Assembly: GCA_944381105.1 (NCBI GenBank)
Contig: CALWJU010000023.1
Location: 1-63,477 of the forward strand
Origin: an uncultured Clostridia bacterium
Lineage (GTDB): Bacteria; Bacillota; Clostridia; Christensenellales; UBA1242
Direction of reading: 5' to 3'
DNA length: 63,477 nt
Made by a program: the position numbers and the translations under genes. Below are positions 1,406 through 61,004 of the stretch, piece by piece. The notes under the pieces are model-generated. The model had not been told where the DNA came from, did not search any database, and was given only the letters and a program-made list of their open reading frames with translations. Position 1 is the first letter of the stretch. The number at the start of each line of letters is the position of its first letter.

Positions 1406-2681
1406 ACATTATCTCCTTAAAAACCTCTCCTCTTGCCGAATATGAGGAAAACTCATCAAAACTTGCACATGCTGGCGAGAGAAGTATCTTTTGCCCCTCG
1501 CAAGCATTTACCTTTGCGTAATAAGTGGCAGATTTCATAGAGGGAAATATTTGAGATGAGTAGCCATATTTTTCTGCACATTCAGCAATTTCTCCACCTG
1601 CCTGACCAAAACAAATCAAATTTTCAAAATCATAATTTTTATTAAAAATCTCGTCATATGTCTCGCCTTTACTTTGTCCGCCTAATAGAAGCACAAGCCC
1701 TCTTTCTCCCAGAGAGTTTATTGCCGATAGCGTTGCCGAAACATTAGTGGCTTTTGAGTCATCAAATACATCTGCACCATTTACCTGACCTAGATATTCA
1801 AGTCTATGTGGTGGTGCTTTAAATGAAATTATTGCCTCTCTTAGTACATTTGGTTTAATTTTGAATTTGACCGAAATAGCAACAGCAGCCAAAACATTCT
1901 CTAAATTTTTTTGTCCAAACAAAGTGATGTCATTTAGTGATATTATTTTATTATTGTTGTAATAGATTGCGTTATTTTTAATAAAAACACCTTTATTTAG
2001 CAATTTTTTAGAAAAAAATGTTGTTTTTTTATCTATTTTTAAAATTTTTGTTTCTTCATCATCAAAATTTAAAACCACCTTTTGTTTGCCACCTGTTAGT
2101 ATTTTTTCTTTAACACGTTTATATTCTTGATAACTACCATGTCTATCCAGATGATCAGGAGCAAGGTTTAATATACATGCCAAATTCGGTTTAAAATATC
2201 TTGAAAGTTCTAATTGAAAATTGCTGACCTCGACAATAGAGTTTGAGGTGTTACTACTTTTCAAAGCAACAGAGGATAACGGCAAGCCAATATTCCCGCA
2301 AACAAAAGTCTGTTTGCCTGCTTTTTTAAATATCTCTCCAACAAGAGATGTAACCGTCGTTTTACCATTTGTCCCAGTTATGCCTATAATTTTGCCTTTT
2401 GTAAAAAGATAGCCAAGGTCGAGTTCGCTAATGATAGGTGTTTTGCTCATTATAAAATGAGAAATTATCTGATTTCCTATCACCTTTATTCCAGGGCTCA
2501 CCACTACCAAATCGTACTTTTTTAGTAATGGCTCTGTCTCAAAACTATAAACATTTGAAAAACGTTTCTCGTCATCATATATGCTCACGCATGCACCTTT
2601 CTCATGCAGTAGTTTGCAGGCTGACTGTCCGCTTATGCCCATGCCATATACTAAAACTTTTTTGCCTTTTAACCTAATCAT
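1374..2681 (-). CDS. murD: UDP-N-acetylmuramoyl-L-alanine--D-glutamate ligase
   Basis: It has the Rossmann motif VLVYGMGISGQS and the Mur-ligase P-loop GITGTNGKTT. I moved the start to ATG 2681 (MIRLKGKK...), which forms an ATGA overlap with the mraY stop. The ORF-track start at 2729 lies inside mraY. Confidence 0.9.
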   Translation of the reverse strand: MIRLKGKKVLVYGMGISGQSACKLLHEKGACVSIYDDEKRFSNVYSFETEPLLKKYDLVVVSPGIKVIGNQIISHFIMSKTPIISELDLGYLFTKGKIIGITGTNGKTTVTSLVGEIFKKAGKQTFVCGNIGLPLSSVALKSSNTSNSIVEVSNFQLELSRYFKPNLACILNLAPDHLDRHGSYQEYKRVKEKILTGGKQKVVLNFDDEETKILKIDKKTTFFSKKLLNKGVFIKNNAIYYNNNKIISLNDITLFGQKNLENVLAAVAISVKFKIKPNVLREAIISFKAPPHRLEYLGQVNGADVFDDSKATNVSATLSAINSLGERGLVLLLGGQSKGETYDEIFNKNYDFENLICFGQAGGEIAECAEKYGYSSQIFPSMKSATYYAKVNACEGQKILLSPACASFDEFSSYSARGEVFKEIMFDNFEKIEMS

Positions 2682-3637
2682 ATTACCCCTGTAACAAACA
2701 TATACCCTATAAGCGAACCAAGTCCGCAAACAAGAGTTATTATTATATATACTGCCACAATTCGATTTTCATGCACGCCATTTTTCTCAAAATGGTGATG
2801 AAGAGGTGTCATTTTAAATATTCTCTTATGCGTCTTTTTAAAGTATAGGACTTGAATAATATCAGATAGAGCAGACAATACAAACATTATCCCTATTATT
2901 GCCATAATTAGTTCGAGCCTCGAAAACACAGCAAGGCTTGCGATAGCCCCACCAAGAGCAAGAGATCCTGTATCTCCCATGAATATTTTGGCGGGAAAAC
3001 AATTGAAGACCAAAAAGCCTAACAAAGAACCAGCAAGAGCAAATGAAATTATAGAATAATTACTTTCACCAAGGAGAGCAACAATCACACCAAAAATTAA
3101 TAGATAAACCATACTTACACCGCCAGCAAGTCCATCTAGTCCGTCAGTAAGATTTACCGAATTTGTAACCGCAACATAGAAAAAGACTATAAAAGGGATA
3201 ATAAATAGTCCAAGGTCAATTTCAAAACCAAACAAATTGATGGAAGTTCCTATATTAAAATAAGCAAAAATTGCAAGTATTAGCGCCAGAGAAACCTGTC
3301 CTATTATCTTTTGATAAGGCTTTAACCCCTCATTTTTATGGTATTTAATCTTTATAAAATCATCAAGAAAGCCAAGGACTCCATATCCAAGCATGGCAAG
3401 AAGAATTAACACAGGAGTATAAAACTTACCCCTAATAAAAATCAGGCTTGCAATTATACTTGATAAAATAAAAATCACACCGCCCATGGTAGGAGTTCCA
3501 CTTTTACCTGCATGCTTGTCCACATAATGCAAAATTGTTTGTTGAATATGAAATTTCTTTGATATTTTTATGACAGGAAAACCTATTATTAAGGCAAGAA
3601 CAAGTCCAACTATAAAAACCAATAAAAAATCAAGCAT
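2678..3637 (-). CDS. mraY: phospho-N-acetylmuramoyl-pentapeptide transferase
   Basis: Membrane ORF with MraY motifs GTPTMGG, NLTDGLDGLAGG, MGDTGSLALGG and PLHHHFE. I set the start to ATG 3637, which is preceded by a GAGGTGG SD. Confidence 0.9.
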   Translation of the reverse strand: MLDFLLVFIVGLVLALIIGFPVIKISKKFHIQQTILHYVDKHAGKSGTPTMGGVIFILSSIIASLIFIRGKFYTPVLILLAMLGYGVLGFLDDFIKIKYHKNEGLKPYQKIIGQVSLALILAIFAYFNIGTSINLFGFEIDLGLFIIPFIVFFYVAVTNSVNLTDGLDGLAGGVSMVYLLIFGVIVALLGESNYSIISFALAGSLLGFLVFNCFPAKIFMGDTGSLALGGAIASLAVFSRLELIMAIIGIMFVLSALSDIIQVLYFKKTHKRIFKMTPLHHHFEKNGVHENRIVAVYIIITLVCGLGSLIGYMFVTGVI

Positions 3638-3754
3638 ACACCACCTCAAAATATATTTATTTAATATTTTGTGCAAGTATGCTTGAAAAAATTAATTTAT
3701 ATTGAATAAATGTTCTCTATTTTTGATTTTTGTTATTTATAAATTTCTTTTGCG

Positions 3755-5266
3755 CTATTCTCTTTCCTCTTCATCTAAACAATTTGCCAATTGACTAGGA
3801 CTTTCTTGTTTGTTTTCATTGTCTATTAAACACATCTTTTCTCTATAATATTCATAGACCACATCAAAATCATTATAAGGATATTTTTCTCCTTTAATTT
3901 CTTGATATTTTTCTCCGCCTTTGCCAGCGATTACAATTGTTTCATTTTGATTAAATTTTTCAAGGGCGTATCTTATTGCTTCTTTCCTATTTTCTATAAC
4001 CTTGCAATTTTTCACCACTCCATCAACTATATCGCCTATTATTGCATAAGGATCTTCATAGCGAGGATTATCGCTTGTCAAGATTACCTCATCTGCAAGA
4101 CGTGAGGCAATTGTCCCCATAATAGAACGTTTTTGTCTATCACGATTTCCGCCACAGCCAAATATGGCAACTAGTTTGTTAGATGAAAGTTCTTTGGCAG
4201 TTTTTAATATTTTTTCTAGTCCATCAGGAGTATGGGCATAGTCAATCACAATGTTGTTGTCCCCCATTTTTATGACATTAAATCTTCCCTCGACTGGATT
4301 TATACAACTCATACCTAAACTTATCAATTCCTTTGGCTCACCTAAACTTCGACATATCGCAATTGAGGCAAGGGCGTTTTGAATATTATATTCCCCTATT
4401 AAATTGCTCTTAATTTTAAACTTCTCCCCCAAACACTCACAGTCAAAGGTTGAGCCACTGAAAGACTTTTGGATATTTTTTGCATTTACATCACAAAAAT
4501 CACTGAGTCCATAGGAAATTACAGGTACTTTCGGGCGCAATAATAAACCTCGACCTATATGATCATCTCCGCATATAATTCCAAGTTTAACTCTATTTTT
4601 ATCAAAAAGTTTAAGTTTGGCATTTGCATAGTTTTCCATATTGCCAAAAAAATCGAGATGGTCCTCGGTAATATTTGTCAGAACTCCTAGATCAAAATTT
4701 ATACCATCAAGTTTATTAAGAGCAAGGGCGTGAGCAGAGGCTTCCATTACCACACATTCACATCCATTTTCTTTCATTTCTTTAAACAGTTTGTGTAGCA
4801 TGTATGGATCAGGTGTGGTAAGTCCTGTATCCACCACTTTGTCGTCAATTTTCGCACCCATAGTTCCTATAAGTCCCGCCTTTACACCAGAGTAACGTAA
4901 AAGTTCATAGGTTGTCGAGGCAGTTGTAGTTTTTCCATTTGTTCCAGTAATTCCAACAATCTTTAACTTATCGCAACACCTGCCGAAAAAATTTTTACAA
5001 GCAAGAGCATAAGCACTTCTTGCATCTTCTACCACAACAACTCTCTTGTCATCACTCGGATGCTGAGAAAATATAACACTAGCACCTTTGTCTAATGCGT
5101 TATTTATAAAGTTATTTCCATCAAAGTTTTTCCCTTCAAGTGCAATAAACAAGTCCCCTTTACGTACATCCTTATCAGATATTTTTATATCACTTATTTC
5201 TGTCTCATCGAGAGAGGTGTCATAATTTTTAATTCTTATATCCTGTAATATGTGTGATAATTTCAT
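3755..5266 (-). CDS. murE: UDP-N-acetylmuramoyl-L-alanyl-D-glutamate--2,6-diaminopimelate ligase
   Basis: Mur-ligase P-loop GITGTNGKTT. The DNPR motif (LTSDNPRYEDP) is characteristic of meso-DAP-adding MurE. Confidence 0.9.
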   Translation of the reverse strand: MKLSHILQDIRIKNYDTSLDETEISDIKISDKDVRKGDLFIALEGKNFDGNNFINNALDKGASVIFSQHPSDDKRVVVVEDARSAYALACKNFFGRCCDKLKIVGITGTNGKTTTASTTYELLRYSGVKAGLIGTMGAKIDDKVVDTGLTTPDPYMLHKLFKEMKENGCECVVMEASAHALALNKLDGINFDLGVLTNITEDHLDFFGNMENYANAKLKLFDKNRVKLGIICGDDHIGRGLLLRPKVPVISYGLSDFCDVNAKNIQKSFSGSTFDCECLGEKFKIKSNLIGEYNIQNALASIAICRSLGEPKELISLGMSCINPVEGRFNVIKMGDNNIVIDYAHTPDGLEKILKTAKELSSNKLVAIFGCGGNRDRQKRSIMGTIASRLADEVILTSDNPRYEDPYAIIGDIVDGVVKNCKVIENRKEAIRYALEKFNQNETIVIAGKGGEKYQEIKGEKYPYNDFDVVYEYYREKMCLIDNENKQESPSQLANCLDEEERE

Positions 5267-5413
5267 TTTTTGCCTCCATTATTCCAATTATACTCAGTTA
5301 TTAAAAAATTGAGTTATAGACGACAAATTAACTCAATTATATTAAATTATTGACACTAACACTAAAAAATCAATAAAAAGCGACAAAAGTATGTTTTTAA
5401 GTATTAAAGATTA

Positions 5414-5565
5414 TATTATCGGAAGTTGTCGTCAAGCAGGGCAAAGCCATATTTGACAGCAACTGATGGTCATACATACTATGTGATGAGTGCTAAAAGC
5501 ACACAAATTCGCAAGAATTTAATAAAATTTTGCGTTAGTAAAATTTTATCATCACTTAGTTTATA
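5414..5565 (+). repeat. Modular cloverleaf repeat, unit A1 (alpha cassette, variant long 5' hairpin)
   Basis: The 5' module is TATCGGAAG + hairpin GTTGTCGTCAA/TTGACAGCAAC + CTGATGG. Closing stem ACTATGTGATGA (5478-5489) / TCATCACTTAGT (5549-5560) encloses three hairpins: GTGCT-AAA-AGCAC, AAATTC-GCAA-GAATTT and TAAAATTTT-N8-AAAATTTTA. Confidence 0.85.
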
Positions 5566-5702
5566 ATATCGGAAGTCGAACTTGCTTGCAAGAGTGAGAC
5601 TGATGGTCATACATACTATGTGATGAACACAATTTATTGTGTTTTTGCGTTTAGCAAAATTAAAATTTAACTTGCTTAAATTTTAACATCACGTAGTTTA
5701 TA
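5566..5702 (+). repeat. Modular cloverleaf repeat, unit A2 (beta cassette), in tandem with A1
   Basis: The 5' module is TATCGGAAGTCGAACTTGCTTGCAAGAGTGAGACTGATGG. Closing stem ACTATGTGATG (5615-5625) / CATCACGTAGT (5687-5697) encloses ACACAAT-TT-ATTGTGT, TTTTGC-GTTTA-GCAAAA and TTAAAATTTAA-CTTGC-TTAAATTTTAA. Confidence 0.85.
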
Positions 5703-5746
5703 TTTTAGGGAAGGACAATCAAGAAAAGTTATAGACAGGGATAAAT

Positions 5747-8700
5747 ATGGACTACCTCAAAGAAGACTTAAAAAACTTACTCAGTTGTAAGATAATATCG
5801 AACGTCGGAGAGGGCGAGAAGATAATGATTATGCAAAACTTATCTCGCCTAATTTTTTTGTGTCCAAATTTTGTTAGTGCAGGAAAGATTAAGAGAGGAC
5901 TTGAATCTTTTGGTAAAAAGGTTGAGATAGTTTCAAGTGCGAGAGAGAACGAAGACGTTCATGACAAAAACCTCATGCCGTTTATCGAGAGTATAAATAG
6001 ATATTTGCTCGGAGAAATTGATGCTCTCATCTTTTTGCCCTGCTCAATGATAATAAAATTTGACCTAAATAAGTTTAGGGCAATTGAAATAAAGAAAGAC
6101 CAGACAATAAGACTAAATGACTTGATAGAAAATCTTGTGTCCTATGGATATGAGAGAACTAGTCTTGTCGCAAACCCAGGAGAGTTTGCATTAAGAGGAG
6201 ATATACTTGATATATTTACGCCAACAGCAGAAAATCCATTTAGGATAGAGTTCTTTGATGACTTTGTTGAAAATATTTCTGTTTTTGACCCAAGTACGAT
6301 GAAAAACATTGAAAAACTTGAAAAGACAATTATACCACTCGCTCTTTTACCACTTGGCGATAATGACGTGTTTGACCTTGATGGCAAGAAAATTCTTGAT
6401 GAACCTAAAAGACTTGACGAGGAAATATCACTTTTAATGGCTTCCTATTCTGCTATGTCCTTTTACCGACATGAAAATTATCAAAATTTTGATGCCTTGC
6501 AAAGCAAAAGTGATATGATATTTGATAACTTTCAAACGATTAGACCTGACTATCACAATGAAAAGGTTGGTGAGCAAAGTTATCTTACAAATTTTATGCT
6601 TTTAAAACAGGATATAAACGATTTTATAAATTTGAAACAAGGGATAATTTTATTTGCTGGTAGTGATAGATACTGTAAAACTCTCTCCGATTTTTTAACT
6701 GAAAATGGAATAAATTTTACTTCATATAGCGGACAAAAGATTGAAGAGGGCAATGTCTATATCTCTTCTCTTGCATGTCCTTATAGTTTTTCATTTTTAA
6801 AAGAGGGTGTTGTCGGTATTGGATGTGATAGTCTATTTAGAAACACTCTTGCCACCTTTACAAAGAGTAAACACTCTGTATTTTATCTGCCAAAACTTGG
6901 CGATTATGTTGTACACACCTTTCATGGTATAGGCAAATGTATCAAGATTGAGAGGATGAAAATATCTGACGTAGAAAAAGATTACTTTGTAATCGAGTAC
7001 AAAAACGGAGATATATTATATCTTCCAAGTGAAGAGGCAAACACCATATCAGCCTATATTGGAAGCGAAGAAAGTCCAAAACTTTCATCTCTCGGTGGCG
7101 GTGAGTTTACAAGGCTCAAACAAAGAGTAAGAGCAAGCATAAAAGAGATGGCTATAAACCTTGTGGAGATGTACAAGGCAAGGGAGACCTTGAAAGGCTT
7201 TAAATTTAAACGTGATGACTACTTAGAAAAGCAATTTGCCGACGACTTTGGCTATCAAGAGACGCCAGACCAGATAAAAGCAATCATGGACGTTGATAAG
7301 GATATGGAAAGTGATAAGGTTATGGATAGGCTTATCTGTGGCGATGTAGGTTTTGGCAAGACCGAAGTCGCTCTTAGAGGGGCTTTTAAATGTATCTATA
7401 ATGGTAAGCAGGTTGCCCTCCTTTGTCCTACGACCATCCTATCGCAACAGCACTACATGTCAGCAAAGCAAAGGTTAGAACCTTTTGGCGTTCAAGTTGA
7501 GGTCATCAATCGTTTTAAATCGCCCTCGCAAATCAAAGAGATAATAAGAAAAACAAAAGATGGCGAGATAGATATGCTTATTGGTACACATAAAATACTT
7601 AGCGACAGCGTTGAGTTTGCAGACTTAGGATTGTTAATTTTAGACGAAGAACAGCGTTTTGGAGTGGAACATAAAGAAAAAATAAAGAATAAGCATAGAA
7701 ATGTTGATGTACTTACTCTTTCAGCGACGCCTATTCCTAGGACGCTAAACATGTCGCTTTCTGGCATACGAGATATTTCTGTTATAGAGACGCCACCACG
7801 TGATAGACTTCCTATACAGACCTATCTAGCCGAAGAGAATGACCAACTGATTAAGGACGTAATAAATAGAGAGCTTGCTCGTGGCGGACAGGCGTTTATC
7901 ATATATAATAGAGTAGAAAGCATAGAGGAGTTTGCCTCGCACATAAGAAAACTTTTGCCTAGTGCAAGTGTAGGAGTTGCACACGGTCAAATGCCAGAGA
8001 AACTCCTAGAAAATGTGATTGATAGGTTGTACAAGGGCTTTTATAATGTGCTTGTGTCTACAACTCTAATTGAAAATGGAATAAATCTTCCTCTTGCAAA
8101 TACCATGATTGTAATCGAGGCTGATAGATTAGGACTAAGCCAACTCTATCAACTTAGAGGAAGAATAGGGCGTAGCGATAGGCTTAGTTATGCCTATTTA
8201 ACCTATGTAAAAGATAAACATCTTACAGATGAGGCTTATAAGAGACTTGAAGCAATCAAGGAGTTTAGTCAACTCGGCAGTGGTTTTAAAATAGCCATGA
8301 AAGACCTAGAAATAAGGGGAGCAGGTAATATTTTTGGCAAGGAGCAACATGGCCATATTGCTAAGGTAGGATATGACATGTTCGTCAAACTGCTTGATGA
8401 AGAGGTTAAGGAGGTTAAGGGCGAAAAGGTTGAAATTAAAAACGACGTTAGGCTTGAAATATCGCTCAGTGGCTTTATTAGCGAGAATTATATATCAGAC
8501 GATGAGCAGAGAATTGTATACTATACAAGAATAAGCGAAATATCCTCACAAGAGGAGGAGAAGAATATACTTCAAAGTCTTAGAGATGGTTATGGCGAGC
8601 CTCCACAAGAGATAATAAATCTTTGCCAACTTGCATATCTAAGAAACATTGCTGGTAATTTTGGAGTTACAAAAATAAGGGTAAATAAGTATGATATGTT

Positions 8701-14920: not shown

Positions 14921-15116
14921 AGAGAAAACCCTGGGATAATGGGTTCAAAAGAGGTTATACCTTTGATTAAAAATACCTCCTATGATATAATATTTTTGTA
15001 GTTCACGCAAAATATTATCATAGGAGGTTGTTGTCATGCATGACACTAATAGTTTAGCACATACGATCTTGTGCTCCATTTTTGGCATGCCTAAGAACAA
15101 TCAAGTTTGGTGGTAG
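14921..15116 (+). mobile_element. IS200-type left-end remnant with truncated tnpA (pseudogene)
   Basis: A hairpin AACCC...GGGTT is followed by a roughly 20-bp stem, ACCTCCTATGATA(T)AATATTTT (14975-14996) / AAAATATTATCATAGGAGGT (15009-15028), that sequesters a GGAGG SD. A 26-codon ORF at 15036-15116 (MHDTNSLAHTILCSIFGMPKNNQVWW) carries the N-terminal SLAHT signature of IS200/IS605 Y1 transposases and then degenerates. Confidence 0.5.
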
Positions 15117-15450: not shown

Positions 15451-15492
15451 CACTAGTGTCATGAAGATAAAATACTAGCATACAAAAAATAC

Positions 15493-15575
15493 ACTGTGTG
15501 ATCTTAAAATTTAACCAAGTTAAATTTTAAATTTTGCATACGCAAAAAGCACAATAAATTGTGCTATCACACAGT
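15493..15575 (-). repeat. Diverged beta-type cloverleaf repeat core (unit D)
   Basis: Closing stem ACTGTGTGAT / ATCACACAGT encloses TTAAAATTTAA-CCAAG-TTAAATTTTAA, TTTTGC-ATAC-GCAAAA and AGCACAAT-AA-ATTGTGCT. The order matches the reverse complement of the beta cassette, and paired substitutions preserve the stems. Confidence 0.7.
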
Positions 15576-15611
15576 TAGGTAAGCACCTACTCATGCAAAT
15601 TTGCTTTTGAT

Positions 15612-15660
15612 AAAAACACGGCAATAAACTTGCTTGATAGCGGTAATTGCTGTGTTTTTT
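15612..15660 (+). terminator. terminator between convergent spoIIID and fba
   Basis: AAAAACACGGCAAT...ATTGCTGTGTTTTT. The single G-T wobble is tolerated only on the plus strand. Confidence 0.55.
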
Positions 15661-19975: not shown

Positions 19976-22642
19976 ATGGTTAGAATTGTTCCTAGAAGAA
20001 CAAAAGTTAAACTAGAATTTGTTAGAGGTTTTACCGCAATTGATTTACTTCTTGCTGCAATTGCTGTTGTAGTATTGATTGTTCTAATCGCCTCAAACTT
20101 TAATGGTAACATTTGGGTTGCAATCATATGGGCAATCTTTTCTATATCTATGTTCTTTAAGATTGCAGATAGTGATAGGTTTTATATTACCATAACGCAC
20201 ATTGCAAGATTTTCTATGCAGAAGAAAAAATACGAGAAATCACCAAAGAAGGGAAAACCAAATATAAAAAATATAATACCATTTGAATCTATTTATGGAG
20301 ATAGGTACATATCATATGGCTCGTACTATGCGGGAGTGCTTGAAGTAAAACCTGTTCTTTTTGACCTTCTCAATGAGTATAGCCAAAACAACCTTATAGA
20401 TATAGGTTTTGGAAATGCGTTAAGGAGACTTGACGATAATCAGGTCTGCGAAATTGTCAAAATTAATAAGGCAATGGTTCTTGATAACTATGCCTATAAC
20501 GAAAATAGAAAATATGATAGGCTTCTTGACCAACTTTACGAGAAACAGATGACGCAAGATGAGGTAGATGCGAGGACACCAATCCTTGAAGAGAGAATTG
20601 CTTTTCTTGAAGATAGAAATAGAGAAAATAAAATTTATAAAGACTACTTCTATCTTGTGGTGCTAGGAAAGGAACTCGAAGCACTTGAAAACACAATAAG
20701 TGGTATGGCTATGTCGCTTTCCTCATCTTTAACACCTGTTACAACACATAGGCTAGTGGGGAGTGAACTTGCAGTATTTTTAAGAGCCAACTACAATAGA
20801 GAATTTAATGAGCGAGACCTTGAAACTATACCATACACTGAGTATATAAATTGGGCTACTCCTGATAAGATTAAGTTTTCCTCAGCAAGATATAATATTG
20901 ATGGAAATTACTATCGAACCTATGCAATTACAGAATATCCTTTACAAGTTGGTAATGCTTGGGGTGCGTCATTCTTCCTGCTTGACCGAACAAAAGTTGT
21001 AATGAAATTTCAAAAAGCACCAAAATATGACTCAGAGAGAAAGATAGATAAAGCTATTATGGATATGGAGACCAGACTTTATAAAACTGGGCGTAGTAGT
21101 ACACGAATTGAGATTACCACGCATCTGCAAACTTTGAGAAACTTACTTGCTGAACTAAAAAATAACAATCAACAACTCTATGATGTAAACACTTTTATTA
21201 CTTGTGAGGAGTCGGCAAGAAAAGACGTTAAAGCGGTGTTAAAACAAGAAGGTTTTAGATATAGCGAAATGTTCGCTCGCCAAATAGATGCTTTTATAAG
21301 TTCGGGAATTTCAATGAGGGATAATATAAAAGAACTACAAAGAGGTATACCTACATATACTCTTGCTGGTGTCTTTCCATTTATTTCCTCTGAACTTCAA
21401 GATGAAAATGGTATATATATCGGTGATAATGCCTATCCTGTGTTTATTGACTTTTTCAAACGTGATCCACAGAGAGTAAACTCAAATATGATGATTATTG
21501 GGAAATCAGGTTCTGGAAAATCTTTTGCCACAAAAACCCTCCTTGCAAACTTTGCAGCAGACAATACAAAGATATTCATCTGCGACCCTGAAAAAGAATA
21601 TTCTAAACTTACCGATAGTTTAAAAGGAAAACTTATAGACGTTGGTTCATCTCTTCAAGGTATAATCAACCCATTCCATGTAATTCGAGCACTTGATAGG
21701 GATGAAGATGACAAGAATATAGAAGATGATGATGAAAAGGAAAGGCAAGACGACTCTTTCAATCAGCACTTGCAGTTTTTGGAACAATTTTTTAGAACAA
21801 TTCTTGAAGGTATATCCTCTGACGCTTTTGAAATAATAAACTCTCTCGTGCTTGATATGTATGCTATATTTCATATTGATGAAAACACAGACCTAAGAAA
21901 TCTTAAACCAACTGATTATCCTACTTTTGATGACCTCTATGCTCTTTTGCAAGAGAGGTTAAAGACAGCAAAAGAGGAGTTTACATTAAATAATCTTCGT
22001 GTGGCAGAGGCGTATATTCGAAAGTTTGCAAAGGGCGGACGAAACTCAAACCTTTGGAATGGTCCAACCTCAATTGAGACCAATGAAAACTTTGTGTGTT
22101 TCAACTTTCAATCACTTATTGCGGGTAACAACGATATGCTTACCAATGCACAAATGCTTTTGGTGTTCAAGTACATAGAAAACGAAATTATTAATAATAA
22201 AGATTATAACAAGTTGCACAACACCAATCGTAAGATTATAGTTGTTGTAGATGAGGCACACACATTTATAAACCCTAAATATCCTATTGCCTTAAACTTT
22301 ATGACAGCAATGGCGAAAAGAATACGTAAGTATGGTGGTATGCAGATAGTCATAACTCAAAATATAAATGACTTTGTGGGTTCAGAAGAGATAAAAAGAC
22401 AATCGACGGCGGTCATCAACGCTTGTCAATATTCACTCATCTTTTCCCTATCTCCAAATGACGTGAACGACCTTATAGAACTGTACAAAAACTCAGGTGG
22501 TATCAATAAAGAAGAACGAAACCGTATTGTTTCTGCACAAGTAGGACAGGCGTTCGTTATAACGGCACCAACTGCAAGAACAATGGTACAAATACATCCA
22601 TTAAATTATGTAGAGTCGATTTTCAAAGATAAAAATGAATAG
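19976..22642 (+). CDS. PrgI/VirB3-like membrane domain fused to a VirB4/TraE/TcpF-family type IV secretion ATPase
   Basis: The N-terminal ~95 aa (RIVPRRTKVKLEFVRGFTAIDLLLAAIAV..., two TM helices) resembles Gram-positive PrgI. Next comes the typical VirB4 N-domain opening YYAGVLEVKPVLFDLLNEY. Walker A is MIIGKSGSGKSF (about 21494-21526), followed by ICDPEKEY, Walker B IIVVVDEAHTF (about 22237-22266) and RKYGGMQIVITQNINDF. GAGG SD. Confidence 0.8.
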   Translation: MVRIVPRRTKVKLEFVRGFTAIDLLLAAIAVVVLIVLIASNFNGNIWVAIIWAIFSISMFFKIADSDRFYITITHIARFSMQKKKYEKSPKKGKPNIKNIIPFESIYGDRYISYGSYYAGVLEVKPVLFDLLNEYSQNNLIDIGFGNALRRLDDNQVCEIVKINKAMVLDNYAYNENRKYDRLLDQLYEKQMTQDEVDARTPILEERIAFLEDRNRENKIYKDYFYLVVLGKELEALENTISGMAMSLSSSLTPVTTHRLVGSELAVFLRANYNREFNERDLETIPYTEYINWATPDKIKFSSARYNIDGNYYRTYAITEYPLQVGNAWGASFFLLDRTKVVMKFQKAPKYDSERKIDKAIMDMETRLYKTGRSSTRIEITTHLQTLRNLLAELKNNNQQLYDVNTFITCEESARKDVKAVLKQEGFRYSEMFARQIDAFISSGISMRDNIKELQRGIPTYTLAGVFPFISSELQDENGIYIGDNAYPVFIDFFKRDPQRVNSNMMIIGKSGSGKSFATKTLLANFAADNTKIFICDPEKEYSKLTDSLKGKLIDVGSSLQGIINPFHVIRALDRDEDDKNIEDDDEKERQDDSFNQHLQFLEQFFRTILEGISSDAFEIINSLVLDMYAIFHIDENTDLRNLKPTDYPTFDDLYALLQERLKTAKEEFTLNNLRVAEAYIRKFAKGGRNSNLWNGPTSIETNENFVCFNFQSLIAGNNDMLTNAQMLLVFKYIENEIINNKDYNKLHNTNRKIIVVVDEAHTFINPKYPIALNFMTAMAKRIRKYGGMQIVITQNINDFVGSEEIKRQSTAVINACQYSLIFSLSPNDVNDLIELYKNSGGINKEERNRIVSAQVGQAFVITAPTARTMVQIHPLNYVESIFKDKNE

Positions 22643-22659
22643 TAACAAAGGAAGGTTAT

Positions 22660-25600
22660 ATGACAAATTCTAAAAAATTAAGTATGTTTATATTTAGTTT
22701 GCTACTTGTCGTTGCAAGCCTTCTTTTTGTTGCGTGTGGAGAGAATGATTATTCTAATGTTTCAATCTCCTCATCACAAGAGACAGTTGAACTTGTTGTA
22801 GGAGAGGAAAATTCTCAAAATATTACTTTTACAATAAACAATCCAGTTAGAAATATGGAGAGCGGTTTTGTTGTACAAGCCGAGGATGACGGAGTGTATA
22901 GTGTGCAATTACAAAGCAGTGTTTCATATTCTAGTACTTATACTATTACTGGATTAAAAGGTGGAACATCAACAATCACAGTTAGAACAAGAGAGGGGAA
23001 TATTAGCAAGAGTGTACGAGTCAATGTAAGACAGTATTCAGATGGTCTTACTAGTGCAAGCAATTCTCTCTATGTTTCACTATCAAGTGAACTTATTCCA
23101 TCATCAGCCGATTTTGTATTCTCAGATAACACCACTGAGCGAGACCTTAATTACTATTTTTACGGACAAGTAAATAGTGATATTTCTCTTGATGATGTAA
23201 TAGAAGGAGAAAATTATATAAATCAATTTGTCAGTGTAAACCTAATAAATTTAAACTCTTTGCAATATTTAATATTTGAAGATGAACAAGGTGCTCTCTT
23301 TACTCTTGGGCAGGGAGAAAGTGTTTCAGACAATATAAAATATGATTTTATTGAAGTAGAACTAGAAAATGGTCAATATTTACTTGATGAAAATGCTTCC
23401 TCAGTGATGCCAGGGCAAAGATTTTCTTTTATAGCAGTCAATGAGAACATTTCAGGAGAGCCTTTATATTGCCAGCGAGACTTTATTGTTATAACTGATA
23501 TTAATAGTGAAAGTATCTCTCGTGATGTAGGATATAGGATAGTTGGGTATAACTATACACCTGGTTCTGACTATTCATATAAGTTGCCAGAAAGCGAGGG
23601 TAGTGATATAACCTTAATACCAAATTATACAAGTACAATAGAAAATGGTGTGTTTATCGGAGAAGAGGTCAATTATGTTACTGCCTATGTTGAGGTAAGC
23701 ATAAATAGTGATAGTGATTTGTTAAGGGTATCCTCTTCAACTGAAAATGTAAATGTTATCAATACACTTTTGCTAAGTGATCCTATTAGACAAAATGGAG
23801 TTACAACATATTATTATCAAATAGATTGTGCAACCAGCCAAGGACAAACAACAAATTTCAATCTTACTTTCTACTATGATGGGTTTGAGGATAGCGATGA
23901 TGAAAATGTCAACTTTACATATTCAATACCTGTAAATATAAGAATAATTCCTACAAATGTTTTAGCAAATGATATTGATTTGTTAAATTCAGAAGAGGTT
24001 TTTACATTCTATGATATTTATTATGGTGATTATGGTTGGCAAAGGTTTTTGTTTACTTTAAATCCTGCTAATGCTGAATATGATAGTATTTCAATTGACC
24101 TTACGAATACTGATTTGGAGTTGAGATATAATGGCAGTGAGCCTTATAGAGACCAAATTGTTGAAATAGATGATTTATCAGAGCCTATTTATTTAAGAGG
24201 AATTGATGGTGCGAATATTACAGATGAAACACAAGCATTGCCTATTACATTAAATTTCAATGTTTTGCAAGAGGATAGCATTGAGGTAAATCTGCTGTAT
24301 GAAATAGTTCATGGTGTTACCGATTTTGATTATACAACAGATGACTATCGAAGTGGAATATACGTTGATTTAAATGGTGGCGACGTTGCTTTTACCGATA
24401 TCTATGCTGATGTGTCTTTTAGTAATGCAGAGATATCACTCAATAATAATTCTGCCGATGTTGCAAATATCTATTTTGGAAACCCTATTTGTACTCAGCA
24501 AGGACAGGTATATTTGCTTAACTTAATGATAGAACCAACAAATGTAGGCACAGGAGTTTATACAATTACACTAGATAATGGTAAGACTCTAACGATAACA
24601 ATTACTGTTGTAGAATCTCTTCAAAATGTCTCTATTTCTTCACAAAATGTACAAAACACCATAAGATACATTCAGCAAATTGAAGATGAAGATTATCCAT
24701 CAACACTTTTATATGTCTACAACAATGGAAATAACTCTTATTTTGACGTTTCAGTTATGGCAAATGGAGGTTCAAATGCTATAAATAGCGTACAATTTAG
24801 TTTTACCTCACAATTAATTCGACTTGATGGAGCGACCAATAATAATAAAAATTTCAATGTCTATGTGCTTGCAAATGGTGCGTCTACACTTGAACTTAGA
24901 GTAAGTGGTTATGCGGTCAATAACTTCCGCAGAGAGTCTATAACTATATTATATTATATAGATATAATAGGATTTAGTTATATAGATAATTTAAATGTAT
25001 ATAAAGAACATGACGGCAGGGGAGATTATATAGACGAAGATAGTGATAACGAAAGCATAAGAAATTATGGTGTAAGTGCTGCCTATGCAGATGTTTACTC
25101 AGGGACTAACAATACAGATGCAAGGAGTGCGACTTTCAATGTTACAGTATCAAATGATGATGCCTTCTTGTTCGCTCTTCCTTCTACAATCAGAGGTGGA
25201 GCTATTGAGTATGCTGAGCAATCATTTAGCGTAGACTTTATCTATTGGGAAACCGATTGGACTTGGGGAATTACTAAGGACGGAACAAGTGTAGATATAA
25301 TGTATTTCGAGGAGGGTGGTAGCAATATCTATACTCTTACAGGAGTTGGCACTTTTGATACCTCCACAATGACCTTTACTGCACTACCTAGTGTAGCAGA
25401 CCAGCGAAATTTTAAACTTATTGCACATGTTAGACAATATGGGCGAGTTTATTCCTATACAATAAATATTAGGGTATCTACATATGAGGATGTACAACAA
25501 ATAACATTGCAAGAATCAATCACTTCACTTGAATTTACATCAACAGAAAAGACTCATTCTCTAATTGCATACGCTACAAATCTAAATACTGCAACAAATG

Positions 25601-28600
25601 CAGAAATTACAGCATTTATTGAGGGCGGAGTAATTAGCGTTTCAAATGGAGATGGCACAACATCTACTTATAGTATGTTTGATGAAAACTCTATCGTTTT
25701 TGTAGAAAGTGATGGTAGATATCAAATTATTTTAACAGTAAGTGAGCAATTTATAGAGTTTGCAGAGTCTTATGATGGGCAGATGAGTGCAACGCTAATT
25801 ATTGTTGCAACCGATTGGCTGGATGAAAATGGCAATATTTTAACAAGTTATGAAAATGTTGTGATAGAAATACCTGTAAATTTTGCTAATGGAACGCCTC
25901 ATGCAAGATTTACTATTGAAGATGCCGATGACTTACTTAATATGAATTTAAGTGCACATTATCAAATAACCTCTTCAATAGACGTGTCGTCTATTAGTGC
26001 AAGTTTGCCACTAGGAACTTTGTCAGGCTCAATAATAGGTACAGGACAGTACGCTGAAATAACAGGAATAAATATCACAAAAGCTCAAACTTTAACAAGT
26101 GAAAATGGCTCATTTGACTATTATGGGCTATTTACCAGCATTGCAGAGGGTGCTTATATTGAATATATAGCCTTCTCAGGAGAACTTAACGTAGGGAGTG
26201 AAACAAATTTTGCACCACTAGGCAGTTATATAGGACTTGTTGCAGGCGTAAACTATGGTGATTTAATAAATATTGGTGTTACGTTAAATAGTTCATCTGT
26301 TTATATCACAAGCGGATATGTAGGCGGGGTAGTTGGATATAACTATGGCAATATATTGCAAGATTATACCTTGTTTGAAGACGATTCTTCTGTAACTAGA
26401 AGTTTGACGGCATCTCAACTTGAAAATGCAAATAATGACGAAAGTATTGTAGGTGCTGGTAGGTATAGTTATGCTGGTATGAACCCAAAAATCTTACTAT
26501 ACATGAATGGTACTGTTACGGTAAATTACCTTAACAGCAATTTCAGCAGTGAGACATATATCGGCGGTGTTAGTGGAGCAAACGGCGGACTTATAAGGAA
26601 AGTCGATTCAACTGTTTTGAATTTTACAGGTTATACTAACTATATGGCCTATGCTCTATTGCAAGCAAATCCTATCTATTCCTCACAGGTAACAGTAACC
26701 ACAAATATTACCTATGTGGGAGGGCTTACAGGATTTAGTACATCTTCAAGCACCATAGATAGTGGATATAATTTGTATAGAGATTCTGTTGTTACTTTGA
26801 CAAAGTATTATAATTATGTAGGAGCGAATTTAGATAATACCGAAAACGACTATAATGCAGGCAAAGGTATTGTAGTTGGTGGAGAGGTGCGTGGATATGA
26901 CTATATAGGTGGAGTTGTTGGCTATATTGAAAGTGTAGGCGATAGTGGTATGCAGAGAAACAACTTTACAGGTATTACTTCAAGGACCAATGTAAGAGGC
27001 TATCTTGCACAGGTATCGGGAGCGACGACTGCACAGGTAGCAGGAATTGCAAATATTAGAAATACCACATATCTAAATACTGCATTTGCTATGCAAGCGG
27101 TAGATAGTGGCAATTCTGGTATAAATGCTTCAATGATAGTTTTATATAATAACTCAATTGTAAATTCTTATTTTGATAATCCTACAACATATCAAGCAAA
27201 TTCTGATAAACTTGCTTTTGGCAATTTAAGCGGAAACAACGTGGATATTATGCAGGGGGCTGACAGTGAAAGTGGTAAACCATATACAAATGTATACACT
27301 TTCAATATATCACGAGAACAAATAGAGATACCTGATGGTCAGTCTAGCATGACAATAACAAGTTTTAATAGAACAAGTTATTATGGCGATTTCATTATAG
27401 CGGGAGACAATGGTAACACACTTTTAGGACAGTCCTTCTTTACCCTAGGCGATGATGAATTGTTATCTGTAAATGCTAAGTATAACAATAGATATATAGC
27501 AGATAATGGTACAGGACGACAAAATATTTACTATATGTTCTATTTTCAAGCCATGACTGATGGCAGTCAAGACTATCAGTCTTTGCTTGACGAATATTTA
27601 AATTATGTTGATTTTAATAGCGTTCTTTATCCATTTACAACAAATGGAGAGATTACTTTTACTTCAAACAGTAGGGATATATTGACAATAGACCAAAATG
27701 GCAGAATTAATGTAAAATCAACAGGGCTTGCTCAGATAACAGCAACTAGCGTGCTAAATTCAAATAATGCTCTTGAATTTTATATTTATGTTGTAAATTA
27801 TTTCAATCCTGATGAACCATCATTTACTCATAGTGATGAGGAAGATTATCAAGAGAATTCAATAATTTATCCAAATGGTTCATCAAACTCTACTCCTATT
27901 AATAATGTTACAATTAATATGCGAGGAGAAAATAGTACAAATTTCTATGTTAGGCCATTTTATTCATTGAATTTGGAAATTCTAGATGTCAATGGTGATT
28001 ATCACACTTTCCAGTCTGATCAATCGGGTATGGTATTATTCAATAATGTAGTATTTAATCTTGCTCAAAATACATTAGTTACCGCAGAAATTACTCAGAT
28101 TTCAAGACAGGAAGGTGATGATACGGTTGATGCTATGGATGAACTAGATATAGATATTACAGGTCAAAATATTACAATCAGAAGAAATTCAGAAACTCTT
28201 GAAGCGGACTATAAATTGACAATCGTGCCAAAACTTACTTTGACAATGACAGAGACTGATAATTATGGAAATAGAAAAGAAGTTACCTATTCTTCGTCAG
28301 TGAACAAAACTCTGGATAATGTAATAATCAATTATAGACATGGTGCAACAAATATAAATAATACAAGGTATAACAATGTTCCTATTATATCAAGTCAACA
28401 ATTAAATGAGGTTATAGTAGTTAATTCAACGGCGGAAGAGGATGAACCATATTATTATATAGTATCTCCAAACGGCGAAATCTTACAAGGAGATGAAGAA
28501 CTTTCAAGCATTTTTGCACTGGAATATCTGTATGATAATGAAGATGGTTTGTTTAATGTGTCTTTTACTACATATGAAAATAATCAAAGCAATCTATCTG

Positions 28601-31600
28601 CTCAACAATTTGGACTAACTATCACAATAAACAAATTCAGCCCTCTATATTTAGATAGATATAATCAAAATATCTATGGAGATTATACTATTTACATTTT
28701 TGCAAGTTCTAACACATTAGTCTATACAACATTTGTAATTAATTTTGAACAGACAAATATTATGTCAGTGTCAATAGATAACTATACAAATATTTCCGAA
28801 TCTACTGGTTCTGCTGGACTCTCCTCTACGTCTGAGATCGCAGTGCCTGGCGTAACAGGACTTCTTTCTATTACAGTATCACCAGATGATAGTGATTTTG
28901 ACTATATCTTAATTGAAAATGCTCAATCAAATTATCAATCAGGAAACTCAGTTGCTACATTTGGTCTTGTTGCTCGAAATGCAAACACGCTTGGTTCGTC
29001 AAATATATTTAGTGATGAGACAATATTAGGCTCTTCGACGACAACAGGAATAAGACTAAATCTTGAAGATATCATTGATGTTTATGGCAGTCAAGAGGAG
29101 GGAGAAAACCTTTATTATACGTATAATGGAGTAATTTATATAAAATACGACTTAGGCTCGTATAATGTAGTAGACGGAAGCACAACTACATTTGTTATAT
29201 CGCTTGTCAAAGATGGTGTAGTTTATACAGTCAACAAAAATCTAACGGTAAGATTGCAAAACTATGTTGCTGTTGAGATAGATGGTAAAGAGCCTACATC
29301 TTCAAACACTGATGGATATTATGCACAATATAATGTCGCAAGAGGCATGAGATATAGACTCAATATCAACTCTTATGGTTATGAACTTGATAATATTACT
29401 CCGCCTACTGTAAGTGATAGTTCACTTGCAACAATTGTAGAGGAAGATGGCGAATACTACCTAGAAATCACACCATCTACTATTGATTATACAAACGGAA
29501 GAAACACATTTACAATATCCATATCTGCAAGTCAGCAAGAAGGAGATATTCAGAGACAATCAAGCAGTGAAACTCTTGTTACAATAAGTGAATATGTGAT
29601 AAATTATGACTCTTCTGTAAATCAAGATGCAGATATTGTAAGCGGAATGGGGAATGGAGAAATAAACATTCAAGTAGGCACTCAGTACTCGTTAGAAATT
29701 GATTTGTATGATTATATAGAATACAATGAAAATATAACCTCTGTTACAAACAGCATAGACCTTCTTATGTCAAACCTATCTTATAGCGGAAATTGGGTAG
29801 CATATACAAACCTTATTACTGACACGCAACCTGATTATAGTCAAGCGGAAATAGGCAACGGAAGGAGGATGTACTCATTAGGTTATGATGACGGCAATGC
29901 TTTATCAGTATCAAATTATTATTTCTCATCAGAAGGGCTTGATATATTGCCACTTCGAACACATTTGCCAGAAAGTAGATACTATTTCTTTACATATGAT
30001 TGCTTAGTTGTATATGATCAAACTAGCGGTACTTACACAGTAGTGGATGAGGGAGCAAATACTATTGAAATTGATACAACATTTGTACTAAATGTTTACT
30101 CGTCAAGCAGTGAGGAGAGTCCTCTGCCAATATATGATTATGATGATTTAATGGATATGCAAAGTGGTGGTTATTATATTTTGCTTAATGATATAACATT
30201 GCCTAATACCGCTGACGAAGAAAATGGTGTAGAGGCGTTTACTCCTATTAGTGTGGATATAGCATCATTTGATGGCAATGGTCATACCATAAATTTTGCT
30301 GGTACTTATGATATGGGTTCTCGAAGCAGAATAGGCTTGTTCGAATCATTATCAAGTGGCTCGATAATACGCAACCTAAATGTTAATTTCACATCTGCAA
30401 CAGATGGAAGCGATTTAAATATCGACCAAGATGATGAATACGGCTGGTATGGACTGCGAACTGTAAAATTTATTACAAGTGCAAGTAGTTTTAATTTTGG
30501 TGGAATAGTCGTAGAAAATAATGGTATAATTACAAATTGTAATGTTACAACCGACGAGGTAAATGGCAGTGAGTATTATGTAGTAGTAAGGGCGGACAAC
30601 GCACTTAACGGTTCTAGTTATATGGCTGGAATATCTGCCATCAATATAGGATATATAACGAATTGTTCTGTATCTATAAACATGAAAACACCTTACAATA
30701 TGGCTGGAATAGTTGGACAAAATTCAAATAAGATTGCATCTACATATTTCAAAGATGGTTCTTTAATAAATAACTCGCAACAAGACCAACATATTGCAGG
30801 ATTTGTTGTCAATAATATGGATAATGGACAGATTATCACAAGTTATGTTGCTGGACAGACCACAAGTGATTCTATTTATAGTAAAGACAGCGAAAGTCAA
30901 ATAATATCCTCTCTTGCCTCTGCTGGTTTTGTATACCAAAATTATGGAAATATAAGTGATTGTTATACTGATATAGACTTGTCAAGTACAACAGCAGACA
31001 TGGCAGGCTTTGTATATCAAAATGCAGGACAGATTAAAAATTCCTTCTCGCTATGCAAATTACGAAACAACATAATCGCATCGGCAGGTTTTGCAAGGTA
31101 TAATACATTAGAAGGGCAAAGCGGAACATTTGAAAATTGTTACTATTTCTATAACGAAAGAACAGATGCAGGCGACGGCACAAGTTATACAAACGATGAG
31201 GGCTTTATATATGGCGAAGATGATATAAATACTTCAATTGTGCCTGTAAATTATAGTGGTATAACAAGATTGAATGCAGGTGGATTTGCAAACCTTGAAG
31301 AGAATTTTAGTTCTTATGCTTATCAAGAGACAATGGGAGTTGAGAGCATTTGGTTTTATAGCACAGGGAATACCTCTTCAACATTCGTTGAGTATATCCC
31401 AACAACCGAAAGAGTAGAACTTCCAGGCGAGGATGGCAACACTCAATCAAATACAATCTACACCACACAACTTTCAACTTTTGCGATAAATAGACTTGAA
31501 CTCGTCAGTCCAAATGTGGATGCTTTATCTATTAGGAATTTTAGTTATTCAGAGGTAGATGATGCAACAGGAGAGGTTACATATCATTATGTTGATGACA

Positions 31601-42851: not shown

Positions 42852-42926
42852 TGGTAGCCTCAAGGGGAATCGAACCCCTGATTCAGCCGTGAGAGGGCTG
42901 CGTCTTGACCGCTTGACCATGAGGCC
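42852..42926 (-). tRNA. tRNA-Glu (anticodon CUC), CCA encoded
   Basis: The minus strand reads GGCCTCATGGTCAAGCGGTCAAGACGCAGCCCTCTCACGGCTGAATCAGGGGTTCGATTCCCCTTGAGGCTACCA. The acceptor stem is GGCCTCA/TGAGGCT, the anticodon stem is CAGCC/GGCTG with loop CTCTCAC, and the T-arm is GGGGTTCGATTCCCC. Confidence 0.85.
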
Positions 42927-57625: not shown

Positions 57626-58657
57626 ATGAAAATATTACACACAGCAGATATTCATTTAGGTGCTAAAAATGTTAGATTAAGCCTTGATAGACAGGCAAAA
57701 ATCAGAGAGGAACAAAATAGGTTAATTACCAATCTTTTTTCTGATGCTTATCGAAATGACTATGATGTAGTATTGATATGCGGAGATTTGTTCCATTCTA
57801 AAAACATATCATCAAAGATAACCAATAACTTTTTTAGGTCGGTTGAAAATTTTGCACGTCCTGTTTTATACGTTAAAGGAAATCATGATGAAAAATTTGA
57901 TTTTACGAATTTGCCTAAAAATTTTATTGTCCTATATGGAGACTTTTATGAGTATAACAATGTGGTTTTTTGGGGGCAACAAGATGCAGAAATTATTGCA
58001 AAGAAAATAGATAAAAATAAAATTAATATAATGCTTTTGCACGGAGATATTAAAAATAGAAATGATAGAGACTTTGTAGATATAGAAGAATATATTTCTT
58101 TACCTTTTAACTATATAGCACTTGGGCATATTCATAGTTATGAAAAACAGATAAAAAATGATATAAGTATAGTTTATCCAGGTTCACTTTTCTCAAACGG
58201 TTTTGATGAAACTGGTAGAAAAGGTTATGTTGAATTGACATTCGACGAAAGCGGAATAAAAGATAAATTTATTGAGTATGGCACATATTCCTATATGCTA
58301 AAATATTGTGATATAACAAATCTTTCTTCTTACAATGATATTCTTGAAAAAGCAAAAGAGTCTCTTCGTGATTGTAGTGAAAACGACCTTGTTAGGCTTA
58401 TAATAAATGGCTATTATAGTGAAGATTGCGAAAAGTATTTGACTGAACTTCAAAGAGCGCTTGATAATTATTTCTATTTTGAACTTATTGATAAAAGTAA
58501 ATTAAAAATAGACTTTGAGAAAATAAAGAATGAAGAACTTTCTTTCAAGGCAGAATTTTTATTGCTGGTAGAAAATAGCAGTGAAGATGATGACAGCAAA
58601 AATAAAATCTGTCAACTAGGGATAGAAGCACTTAGAGGGGATGAATTGTCAATATGA
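57626..58657 (+). CDS. SbcD/Mre11-family metallophosphoesterase (YhaO-like)
   Basis: Start at MKILHTADIHLG after an AAGAGGA SD. Phosphoesterase motifs DIHLG, GDLFH, GNHD, LLHGD and GHIH. Confidence 0.75.
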   Translation: MKILHTADIHLGAKNVRLSLDRQAKIREEQNRLITNLFSDAYRNDYDVVLICGDLFHSKNISSKITNNFFRSVENFARPVLYVKGNHDEKFDFTNLPKNFIVLYGDFYEYNNVVFWGQQDAEIIAKKIDKNKINIMLLHGDIKNRNDRDFVDIEEYISLPFNYIALGHIHSYEKQIKNDISIVYPGSLFSNGFDETGRKGYVELTFDESGIKDKFIEYGTYSYMLKYCDITNLSSYNDILEKAKESLRDCSENDLVRLIINGYYSEDCEKYLTELQRALDNYFYFELIDKSKLKIDFEKIKNEELSFKAEFLLLVENSSEDDDSKNKICQLGIEALRGDELSI

Positions 58658-60785: not shown

Positions 60786-61004
60786 TTTTATTATACTTGT
60801 CTAATAGATTCAATTTTATCAAATAATTAAAGTATTATTTTAATTAATATGCTATTATTTATTTAATTAAAATGACCTTAACGAAGTTATTCTCTTTCAA
60901 TATCTTCGTCGTTACAAATATCAACATTTTCAAATCTCATTTTATGAATATCATCCATATCTTTCATAAATTTTTCATGTTCATATTTTTCATACAATAA
61001 ATGA

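Follow-up and report, generated by a model that had tools for sequence, protein, structure and literature searches.

A modular, structured and gene-less interspersed repeat family of uncultured gut Clostridia

The 63,477-nt contig CALWJU010000023.1 from an uncultured Clostridia bacterium (hereafter the window, meaning this whole stretch of DNA) carries between its genes several copies of a repeat of 137-152 bp that holds no genes of its own. We report that these units belong to a new structured, gene-less interspersed repeat of the bcr1/BOX-like kind, whose fold is conserved and selected through compensatory change and which is confined to a clade of uncultured gut Clostridia. We consider the units to be gene-less, non-autonomous, multi-copy DNA repeats, most likely mobile or recombining DNA and not RNA genes, a reading to which we give a probability of about 60%. 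An earlier note on the window had described six units and had offered three explanations: a BOX-like modular element, a palindrome-associated transposable element (PATE) of the IS200/IS605 type, and a family of structured small RNAs. The present analysis adds to it a dif-like unit junction, a constant TTTATA/TTAT context (the slash marks the border between unit and flank) and a seventh copy.

Architecture and conservation of the fold

Each unit is composed of a 5′ hairpin module and an 83-nt core, in which a closing stem of 11-12 bp (ACTATGTGATGA/TCATCACATAGT) encloses three hairpins in a four-way junction. The 5′ terminus reads TTATCGGAAG(Y) and is followed by CGAAC and a variable hairpin tip, 3′ of which stands GAGTGAG(R)CTGATGGTYATACAT, CTGATGGTYATACAT being a conserved linker; within the core, the variable hairpins 1 and 2 precede hairpin 3 and TCATCACATAGTTTATA, and the unit ends in TTTATA. 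The tip of the 5′ module has been found as type A with a g-CTTG-c loop, as type B with a longer, itself covarying hairpin closed by c-GAA-g or c-TTTA-g loops, and as a third variant, the U1 type. The 5′ modules and the alpha and beta cores occur in all combinations (A-alpha 30, A-beta 19, B-alpha 15, B-beta 13), and this mixing of modules supports the modular intergenic repeat family that the earlier note had described. Its view that alternative cassettes preserve one architecture is equally borne out; its description of alpha and beta as unrelated holds for hairpins 1 and 2, which differ, and fails for the closing stem and hairpin 3, which are common to both.

More distant variants carry other cassettes (L043, L067, L012:1812), and the closing stem of the diverged seventh copy, which we call gamma, recurs in metagenomes enclosing yet other hairpins (L103, L106). 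In two metagenome sequences (L101 4149-4222, L107 4748-4821) the gamma closing stem, GCACTTAAAAG/CTTTTAAGTGC, stands around two hairpins and not three, which suggests a wider superfamily of stem-closed multi-hairpin repeats. Beta units from three species represented by metagenome-assembled genomes (MAGs; L008:496-636, L014:4919-5059, L058:3955-4095) lack the same 2 nt on the 5′ side of the closing stem (CATAC--TGTGATGA); they are a broken-stem variant that has yet been inherited or copied.

The core pattern ACTATGTGATG-N61-CATCACNTAGT matches five times in the window, each match spanning 83 nt, with none expected from shuffled sequence. The closing stem and the three hairpins appear in the minimum free energy (MFE) fold of every unit, on both strands, and are preceded by the separate 5′ hairpin; the z-scores of these folds range from -4 to -7.5, and none of 200 shuffles has been found to fold as well. 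Pair statistics have been taken from a model-based alignment of 94 copies, used in place of a MAFFT alignment of 105 units that sets the alpha and beta hairpins out of register and from which RNAalifold recovers part of the fold. In the model-based alignment, which is itself fitted to the model, 96.5% of the pair cells form a standard pair, compared with 85.6% in shuffled data (a level of pairing as high as that observed was reached by none of 500 shuffles) and 33-43% when the partners are slid against each other. Changes on both sides have been counted for 26 of 45 pairs (14.7 shuffled, 6-15 slid), and the covariation score amounts to 0.296 (0.117 shuffled, 0.019-0.086 slid). It has to be held against these counts that much of the covariation reflects one alpha/beta split inherited by many copies, and that the closing stem does not covary in the main set, because this set was chosen by an exact pattern on that very stem. 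Independent changes have nevertheless been seen in hairpin 1 (GTGCT, GTATGC, GTGTGC, GCGTGC), at the S2 pair, which is C-G in 55 copies and U-A in 25 across both 5′-module types and both core types, in hairpin 3 (U-A/C-G), and in unit D, L012:1812 and gamma. In the diverged copy at 15493-15575, paired substitutions (ACTGTGTGAT/ATCACACAGT and AGCACAAT/ATTGTGCT) preserve the fold, as had been claimed from the window alone, and the proportions of paired cells and double-sided changes support the same claim family-wide: the structure is conserved and selected through compensatory change.

Distribution, turnover and the nature of the units

In an exact-pattern scan of one genome per species, 87 stretches have been retrieved, all but one chance match from 30 species-level MAGs that are labelled uncultured Clostridia, Firmicutes or Christensenella. 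The chance match, from Tepidibacter (L016), lies within coding sequence related by homology to the 1236-aa open reading frame (ORF) of the window at 34454-38164 and has been discarded. An nhmmer profile search of those loci (675 kb) has yielded 138 copies in 99 arrays, of which 66 are single, 28 double, 4 triple and 1 quadruple, always head to tail and never with mixed strands. At least 20 contigs end within a unit, as does the window itself, and such ends are the signature of a high-copy repeat; the MAG CAMLSW01 alone gives 17 blocks. No match has been obtained in a scan of viral contigs for the family, nor by blastn of a tandem pair from the window (U1+U2) against 72,556 plasmids or against phages. 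The Rfam scan of the window has returned only a tRNA at 42855-42926, a permissive Rfam scan of 5300-5800 only sub-threshold chance matches (25 bits at most, where the gathering score is 84), and a literature search on the unit's own motifs only unrelated primers. The uncultured gut lineage thereby gains a well-defined repeat family with a covariance model, which explains why its assemblies break, and sometimes mis-join, at unit sites.

Positions of the units have been found to differ between species. In none of the loci does a unit adjoin homologues of the window genes beside which units lie; a homologue has been found for a single protein of the window (58654-60426), in L074, and the units there point in the opposite direction. 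Few arrays of different MAGs have a flanking gene in common, and sites are common only to near-identical MAG pairs. In an orthologous convergent spacer, L009 carries a unit after AAATTATAT and L040 is empty, and exactly one unit, in register, separates L024 from L030, a difference of the kind that unequal crossover would produce. Upstream of proS, between nearly identical flanks, L108 has A-alpha followed by a U1-type-alpha′ unit and the window A-beta followed by A-alpha; L069 and L085, which are close strains or species, likewise hold different units at the same site. Within species, units D and B of the window are fixed, and ten SpoIIID-carrying contigs, all of one species, have shown no polymorphism. 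Decayed and truncated copies are common. Among the 99 flanking proteins 120 Pfam families are represented, most of them with housekeeping roles (dnaA, recA, tRNA synthetases) and with no transposase or integrase enriched, and an autonomous partner, sought in the loci as orphan 5′ modules or cores flanking an ORF, has yielded decayed fragments only. Unit B has also been considered as the interrupter of a small gene: joining the two sides gives a peptide of 70 aa, whose single relative (43 aa) is this very ORF entering the unit in a related strain, and no empty site has been found.

The mechanism that we consider most likely is one in which units are gained, lost and swapped head to tail at a constant TTTATA/TTAT site by an enzyme encoded elsewhere in the genome, with a contribution of homologous recombination between copies; mobility would then be provided in trans. 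The family makes it testable how gene-less structured repeats such as bcr1 move, the assets for this question being the constant insertion site, a candidate enzyme in every cell, the exchangeable cassettes and the strong DNA fold.

That the fold is one of DNA is suggested by the base pairs themselves. Among the ~2,950 pairs of the four core helices, ~2,900 are Watson-Crick, 25 are G·U and 22 are A·C; since G·U is as rare as A·C, wobble pairs are tolerated no better than mismatches and the two strands are equivalent. The earlier statement that almost all pairs are Watson-Crick is therefore valid for the core. Such perfect nested Watson-Crick palindromes allow either strand to fold, which points to DNA folding and not to a transcript. 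The hairpin-2 loops of alpha are c-GNNA-g in 55 of 58 cases, and other loops read gCTTGc and cGAAg; c-GNNA-g, g-CNNG-c and c-GNA-g are reportedly classic hyperstable DNA mini-loops. The GNRA loop earlier ascribed to alpha is indeed present in the window's own copies and is not family-wide, as 11 of these 55 loops are GNRA and 44 GNYA. Orientation relative to the flanking genes is random (21 arrays convergent, 15 divergent, 15 antisense, 12 co-directional), and 3 of the 99 arrays overlap an ORF of at least 70 aa. At loci A and B, neither promoter-like nor terminator-like sites show an enrichment over shuffled sequence within the units or near them, the terminator-like matches there falling only on the hairpins of gamma and on a separate 38-nt repeat, and an outward sigma-70-like promoter on the bottom strand (TTGCAA-17-TATTAT) is no stronger than chance. 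We infer that folding takes place in DNA, either in a cruciform or in a single strand, and not in a transcript.

The most specific candidate for the enzyme would be a host tyrosine recombinase of the Xer type. Flank logos read TTTATA/TTATCGG on the left and CATAGTTTATA/TTAT on the right (...CATAG-TTTATA/TTAT...), so that the same 10 nt, TTTATATTAT, stand at both borders and one copy is shared between tandem units. On the other strand the junction reads [A/G]CTTCCGATAA-TATAAA-CTATGTGATGA; a canonical XerD-type arm is TTATGTAAACT. The 5′ end of the unit, ACTTCCGATAA, matches at 11 of 11 positions the XerC arm of the dif sites predicted for Macrococcus caseolyticus and Desulforudis, with dif sequences taken from Kono et al. 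2011 (PMC3025954, supplement). A position weight matrix (PWM) has been built from 15 Firmicute dif sites, and its best match in the window is a unit junction with 21.7 bits (20 shuffles: mean 10.5, maximum 15.4); true dif sites score 28-41 bits in total. The three best XerC-arm matches in the window are unit 5′ ends (17.0, 17.0 and 15.6 bits; maximum in 30 shuffles 15.6), the centre TATAAA is acceptable (+2.9 bits), and when all loci were scanned for the true dif of the lineage, unit junctions alone were returned. With its perfect XerC arm of the Firmicute kind, its AT-rich centre of 6 bp and a second arm that is degenerate, the junction follows a pattern known from elements that exploit Xer, among them TLCphi, and it is this pattern that makes a host Xer recombinase the candidate: in attP of TLCphi the XerC arm and the centre are dif-like and the XerD arm is degenerate, and attP(+) of CTXphi is a folded single strand of ~150 nt (PMC4246890). 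Judged from these sequence matches, an involvement of Xer is a lead and not a result, tentative and with chances well short of even. In its full form the idea would make the units miniature gene-less Xer exploiters, modules of ~137 nt that imitate the XerC half of dif at their junction, whether circularised or in tandem, so that the host recombinase might integrate, remove and exchange them chromosome-wide at TTTATATTAT sites resembling the dif core, with the four-way-junction DNA fold serving as an architectural or single-stranded substrate; this we regard as speculative and rather unlikely. If true, it would define a new class of mobile DNA, a gene-less parasite of a site-specific recombinase, and if the Xer link holds, the machinery of chromosome-dimer resolution could be hijacked by 140-bp parasites at many sites and not only by phages at dif.

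Several observations weigh against mobile or recombining DNA and its proposed link to Xer. No excision or insertion event has been directly seen, the sole empty site (L040 compared with L009) lies in a spacer that is merely ~75-80% identical, and the swapping of units could be explained by gene conversion alone. The 5′ hairpin has three conserved G·U positions (193 versus 7) that are strand-specific and would also suit an RNA. The second arm, CTATGTGATGA/T, is not XerD-like by the Firmicute PWM (-1.7 to +3.2 bits, 6-7 of 11 positions matching TTATGTWAAHT), though the lineage's dif may differ. Folding with DNA parameters does not place the XerC arm in a duplex within the folded single strand, nor does it predict a continuous 28-bp dif-like duplex for a single-strand circle. 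Furthermore, gamma is devoid of the XerC arm, the sites are dispersed and number more than 100, whereas known Xer-exploiting elements use the one chromosomal dif, and the dif match was noticed post hoc.

Three other explanations have been weighed. According to the first, the units are genes or cis-elements of a structured non-coding RNA, an amplified paralogous family acting as small RNAs, stabilisers or protein sponges. The strong fold z-scores and the covariation would fit such a family, as would the strand that begins with the 5′ module, which folds 2-9 kcal/mol better with RNA parameters and bears the three conserved G·U pairs; CUUG and GNNA are also good RNA loops, and bcr1, the closest analogue, is reportedly transcribed (PMC3184786). 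Set against this are the core helices, in which G·U is as rare as A·C, the 44 of 55 tetraloops that are GNYA and not GNRA, the random orientation, the lack of a promoter or terminator signal at loci A and B, the Rfam scan of the window without a match for the units, locations that are not conserved between species, and the contigs that break at units. The structured small RNAs of the earlier note are accordingly disfavoured, and we consider an RNA function improbable. The units might also be structural DNA elements maintained by the host, cruciform or protein-binding sites for nucleoid organisation, transcription insulation or replication pausing, that have been spread and homogenised by homologous recombination only. 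Perfect palindromes on both strands, the strictly intergenic placement, the fixation of some copies within species and unit indels that fit unequal crossover are all in line with it; positions that differ between species, frequent decay and truncation and the lack of a function-linked gene context are not, and the constant TTTATA/TTAT context of solitary copies needs a site-specific step, which leaves this explanation quite improbable.

A PATE of an IS200/IS605-type element would be moved as single-stranded circles by a TnpA (HUH) transposase supplied from elsewhere and inserted 3′ of TTATA. It is the IS200 remnant in the window, at ~14921-15116, that brings this origin to mind, together with a constant insertion context without variable duplication, the one TTTATA common to head-to-tail tandem units and the strand-specific wobble pairs of the 5′ hairpin; TTTATA is constant on the left as a PATE would have it, and TTAT is also conserved on the right. 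The unit ends, however, have no similarity in sequence or structure to the remnant, on which the unit model scores 16.5 bits (E 0.07), and they have no similar hairpins, unlike IS200/IS605 ends. No Y1 transposase has been found among the 99 flanking genes, no orientation bias relative to gene direction, taken as a proxy for replication direction (12 versus 15), and no full-length element with unit ends in the 675 kb of loci, where the IS200/IS605 or other element with the same ends that had been suggested as a target of search has likewise not turned up. With remnant hairpins that differ, no transposase linked to the 99 arrays and no orientation bias relative to gene direction, the PATE proposal has found no support and appears very unlikely. 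The remnant itself (14921-15116) comprises a left-end transposase-binding hairpin (AACCC...GGGTT), a 20-bp hairpin over the ribosome-binding site and the start of tnpA (~10 codons, MHDTNSLAHT), after which unrelated sequence follows.

Units and neighbouring genes in the window

The six units of the earlier note have been confirmed at their positions and with the sequences described, the one at 63352-63477 being cut by the window end, and bit scores have been assigned with a covariance model that was built from 30 units and run over the window without filters. Array A is the tandem pair on the forward strand whose first member, U1 (5414-5565), joins a 5′ hairpin module of the U1 type, with a long insert, to an alpha core (126.1 bits; MFE fold -47.6 kcal/mol, z -6.9) and whose second, U2 (5566-5702), joins a type A module to a beta core (105.1 bits). 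Their junction, at 5549-5576 on the reverse strand, is a dif-like 28-mer, ACTTCCGATAT-TATAAA-CTAAGTGATGA, in a weakened variant with 8.2 bits by the dif PWM and an XerC-arm score of 12.0. Unit D (15488-15619, reverse strand, 45 bits) consists of the diverged beta core at 15493-15575 and a decayed 5′ module and is situated between spoIIID and fba; across 10 contigs of the species, this spacer does not vary in length and hardly varies in sequence. The unfiltered run has also revealed gamma (60656-60790, forward strand; 37.3 bits, E 3e-7), the seventh and strongly diverged copy, in which the closing stem and all three hairpins differ in sequence, every helix being changed, and the architecture is identical (-46.3 kcal/mol, z -7.8). 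Unit B (61005-61144, forward strand, 149.7 bits) is solitary, with a type A module and an alpha core, and occurs in the related strain (L108) as well. Array C, on the reverse strand, is formed by C1 (63213-63351; type A module, alpha core, 158.3 bits), the unit closest to proS, and C2 (63352-63477; type A module, beta core), which the window end cuts; C2 is complete in L088, so that the array has two units only. The junction of array C, at 63339-63366 on the forward strand, is the dif-like 28-mer GCTTCCGATAA-TATAAA-CTATGTGATGT, and it is this junction that gives the top dif-PWM match of 21.7 bits.

The neighbours named earlier, Mfd, SpoIIID and ProS, have been confirmed by Pfam, and fructose-bisphosphate aldolase (fba) has been confirmed as a further neighbour. 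For mfd beside locus A, the protein stands and the join at the right flank is contradicted by a different assembly of this sample, in which ddl follows the array. This contig (BRZ_EH NODE_3640) is 99.97% identical to window 2255-5704 and beyond the outer edge of array A runs into ddl and not into mfd (window 5703-5976; L100 1041-1065); NODE_869 begins only at window 5977, and ddl-murF is the more usual gene order. The window may be mis-joined or polymorphic at array A. The motif AACTTGCTTG that had been reported to recur beside unit D is there in position, within the loop of the fba terminator hairpin and adjoining the decayed 5′ module.

Downstream of proS, a small ORF with a good ribosome-binding site (61145-61243, reverse strand) reads into unit B; it has 43 aa in the related strain (L108 2501-2632) and a stop at codon 8 in the window, and is probably spurious or created by the element. 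Just downstream of proS, too, a 38-nt direct repeat with 95% identity (61278-61315 and 61537-61574; CAAAARTTTTATCAAAATGTTTGGGTTYCACCCCAATT, hairpin TTGGGGTGRAACCCAA) flanks a 221-nt, relatively GC-rich stretch; it is conserved in the related strain L108 and has no Rfam match. At 19976-34137, an 888-aa protein with a P-loop domain of the TraG/VirB4 type is followed by a 3825-aa ORF, and this part may belong to a conjugative or secretion element within an otherwise housekeeping region.

Comparison with described systems

Several known classes of elements have been compared with the units and set aside. A classical miniature inverted-repeat transposable element does not fit, as the inverted repeat (the closing stem) is internal, the termini are unrelated to each other, the flanks are constant and there is no parent insertion sequence. 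The arms ACTATGTGATGA/TCATCACATAGT are without the R″/L″...L′/R′ boxes (RYYYAAC ... GTTRRRY) of an integron attC site, and units abut without a cassette gene between them. A known Rfam family, which the earlier note had named as an alternative, has been scanned for and none has been found at the gathering score for the units, tRNA and tRNA-like families included.

The comparison with BOX elements has proved right in kind. Like BOX and the bacterial interspersed mosaic elements (BIMEs), the units are modular intergenic multi-copy repeats of a few interchangeable boxes that are able to fold. The BOX modules boxA, boxB(n) and boxC form one long hairpin, whereas in the units the exchangeable parts are hairpin tips within a fixed scaffold with a four-way junction, and to our knowledge there is no sequence relation between the two. 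Repetitive extragenic palindromes (REPs) and BIMEs, which are associated with REP-associated tyrosine transposases (RAYTs), are described as palindromes of 20-40 bp with a GTAG or CGTC head (PMC3733652). The units, at 137-152 bp, are far larger and more complex than this, and inspection of the unit consensus has revealed no GTAG/CTAC or CGTC head. With PATEs and the REP/RAYT system the units have in common that they are short, non-autonomous and hairpin-based, are thought to act as single-stranded DNA and have a sequence-specific insertion context; unlike PATEs, they have no related full-length insertion sequence and no matching hairpins at their two ends.

Integrative mobile elements exploiting Xer (IMEXs) resemble the units in their tandem arrays and in having no recombinase of their own. 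As in TLCphi, an XerC arm of the dif type (11/11) stands at the unit junction beside six AT-rich central base pairs and a second arm that is degenerate, and as in attP(+) of CTXphi, the site lies within a folding-prone region of ~140-150 nt. In the units the second arm scores as non-XerD and a folded dif-like duplex is not predicted, and IMEXs are kilobase-sized, gene-bearing phages or islands at a single dif, in contrast to gene-less units of 137-152 bp that are dispersed between genes.

The closest described system is bcr1 of the B. cereus group, a gene-less repeat of ~155 bp with tens of copies per genome and locations that vary between strains, which carries TTTAT as a direct repeat of 5 bp, folds in a cruciform-like manner that compensatory changes maintain, and has no known transposase (PMC3184786; PMC6542083). 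In the search with U1+U2, no match has been found in the 72,556 plasmids, which should include B. cereus-group plasmids with bcr1, nor in phages, the bcr1 consensus itself not having been compared. The likeness is a working resemblance and not one of homology, and it extends to the size, the short AT direct repeat at both ends, the compensated cruciform-like fold and the variable location. Apart from their hosts, bcr1 being restricted to the B. cereus group and the units occurring in uncultured Clostridia, the two differ in that bcr1 is drawn as two independent stem-loops and the unit is a 5′ hairpin with a four-way junction, and the units possess exchangeable cassettes, strict head-to-tail arrays and a dif-like junction, features that have not been reported for bcr1.

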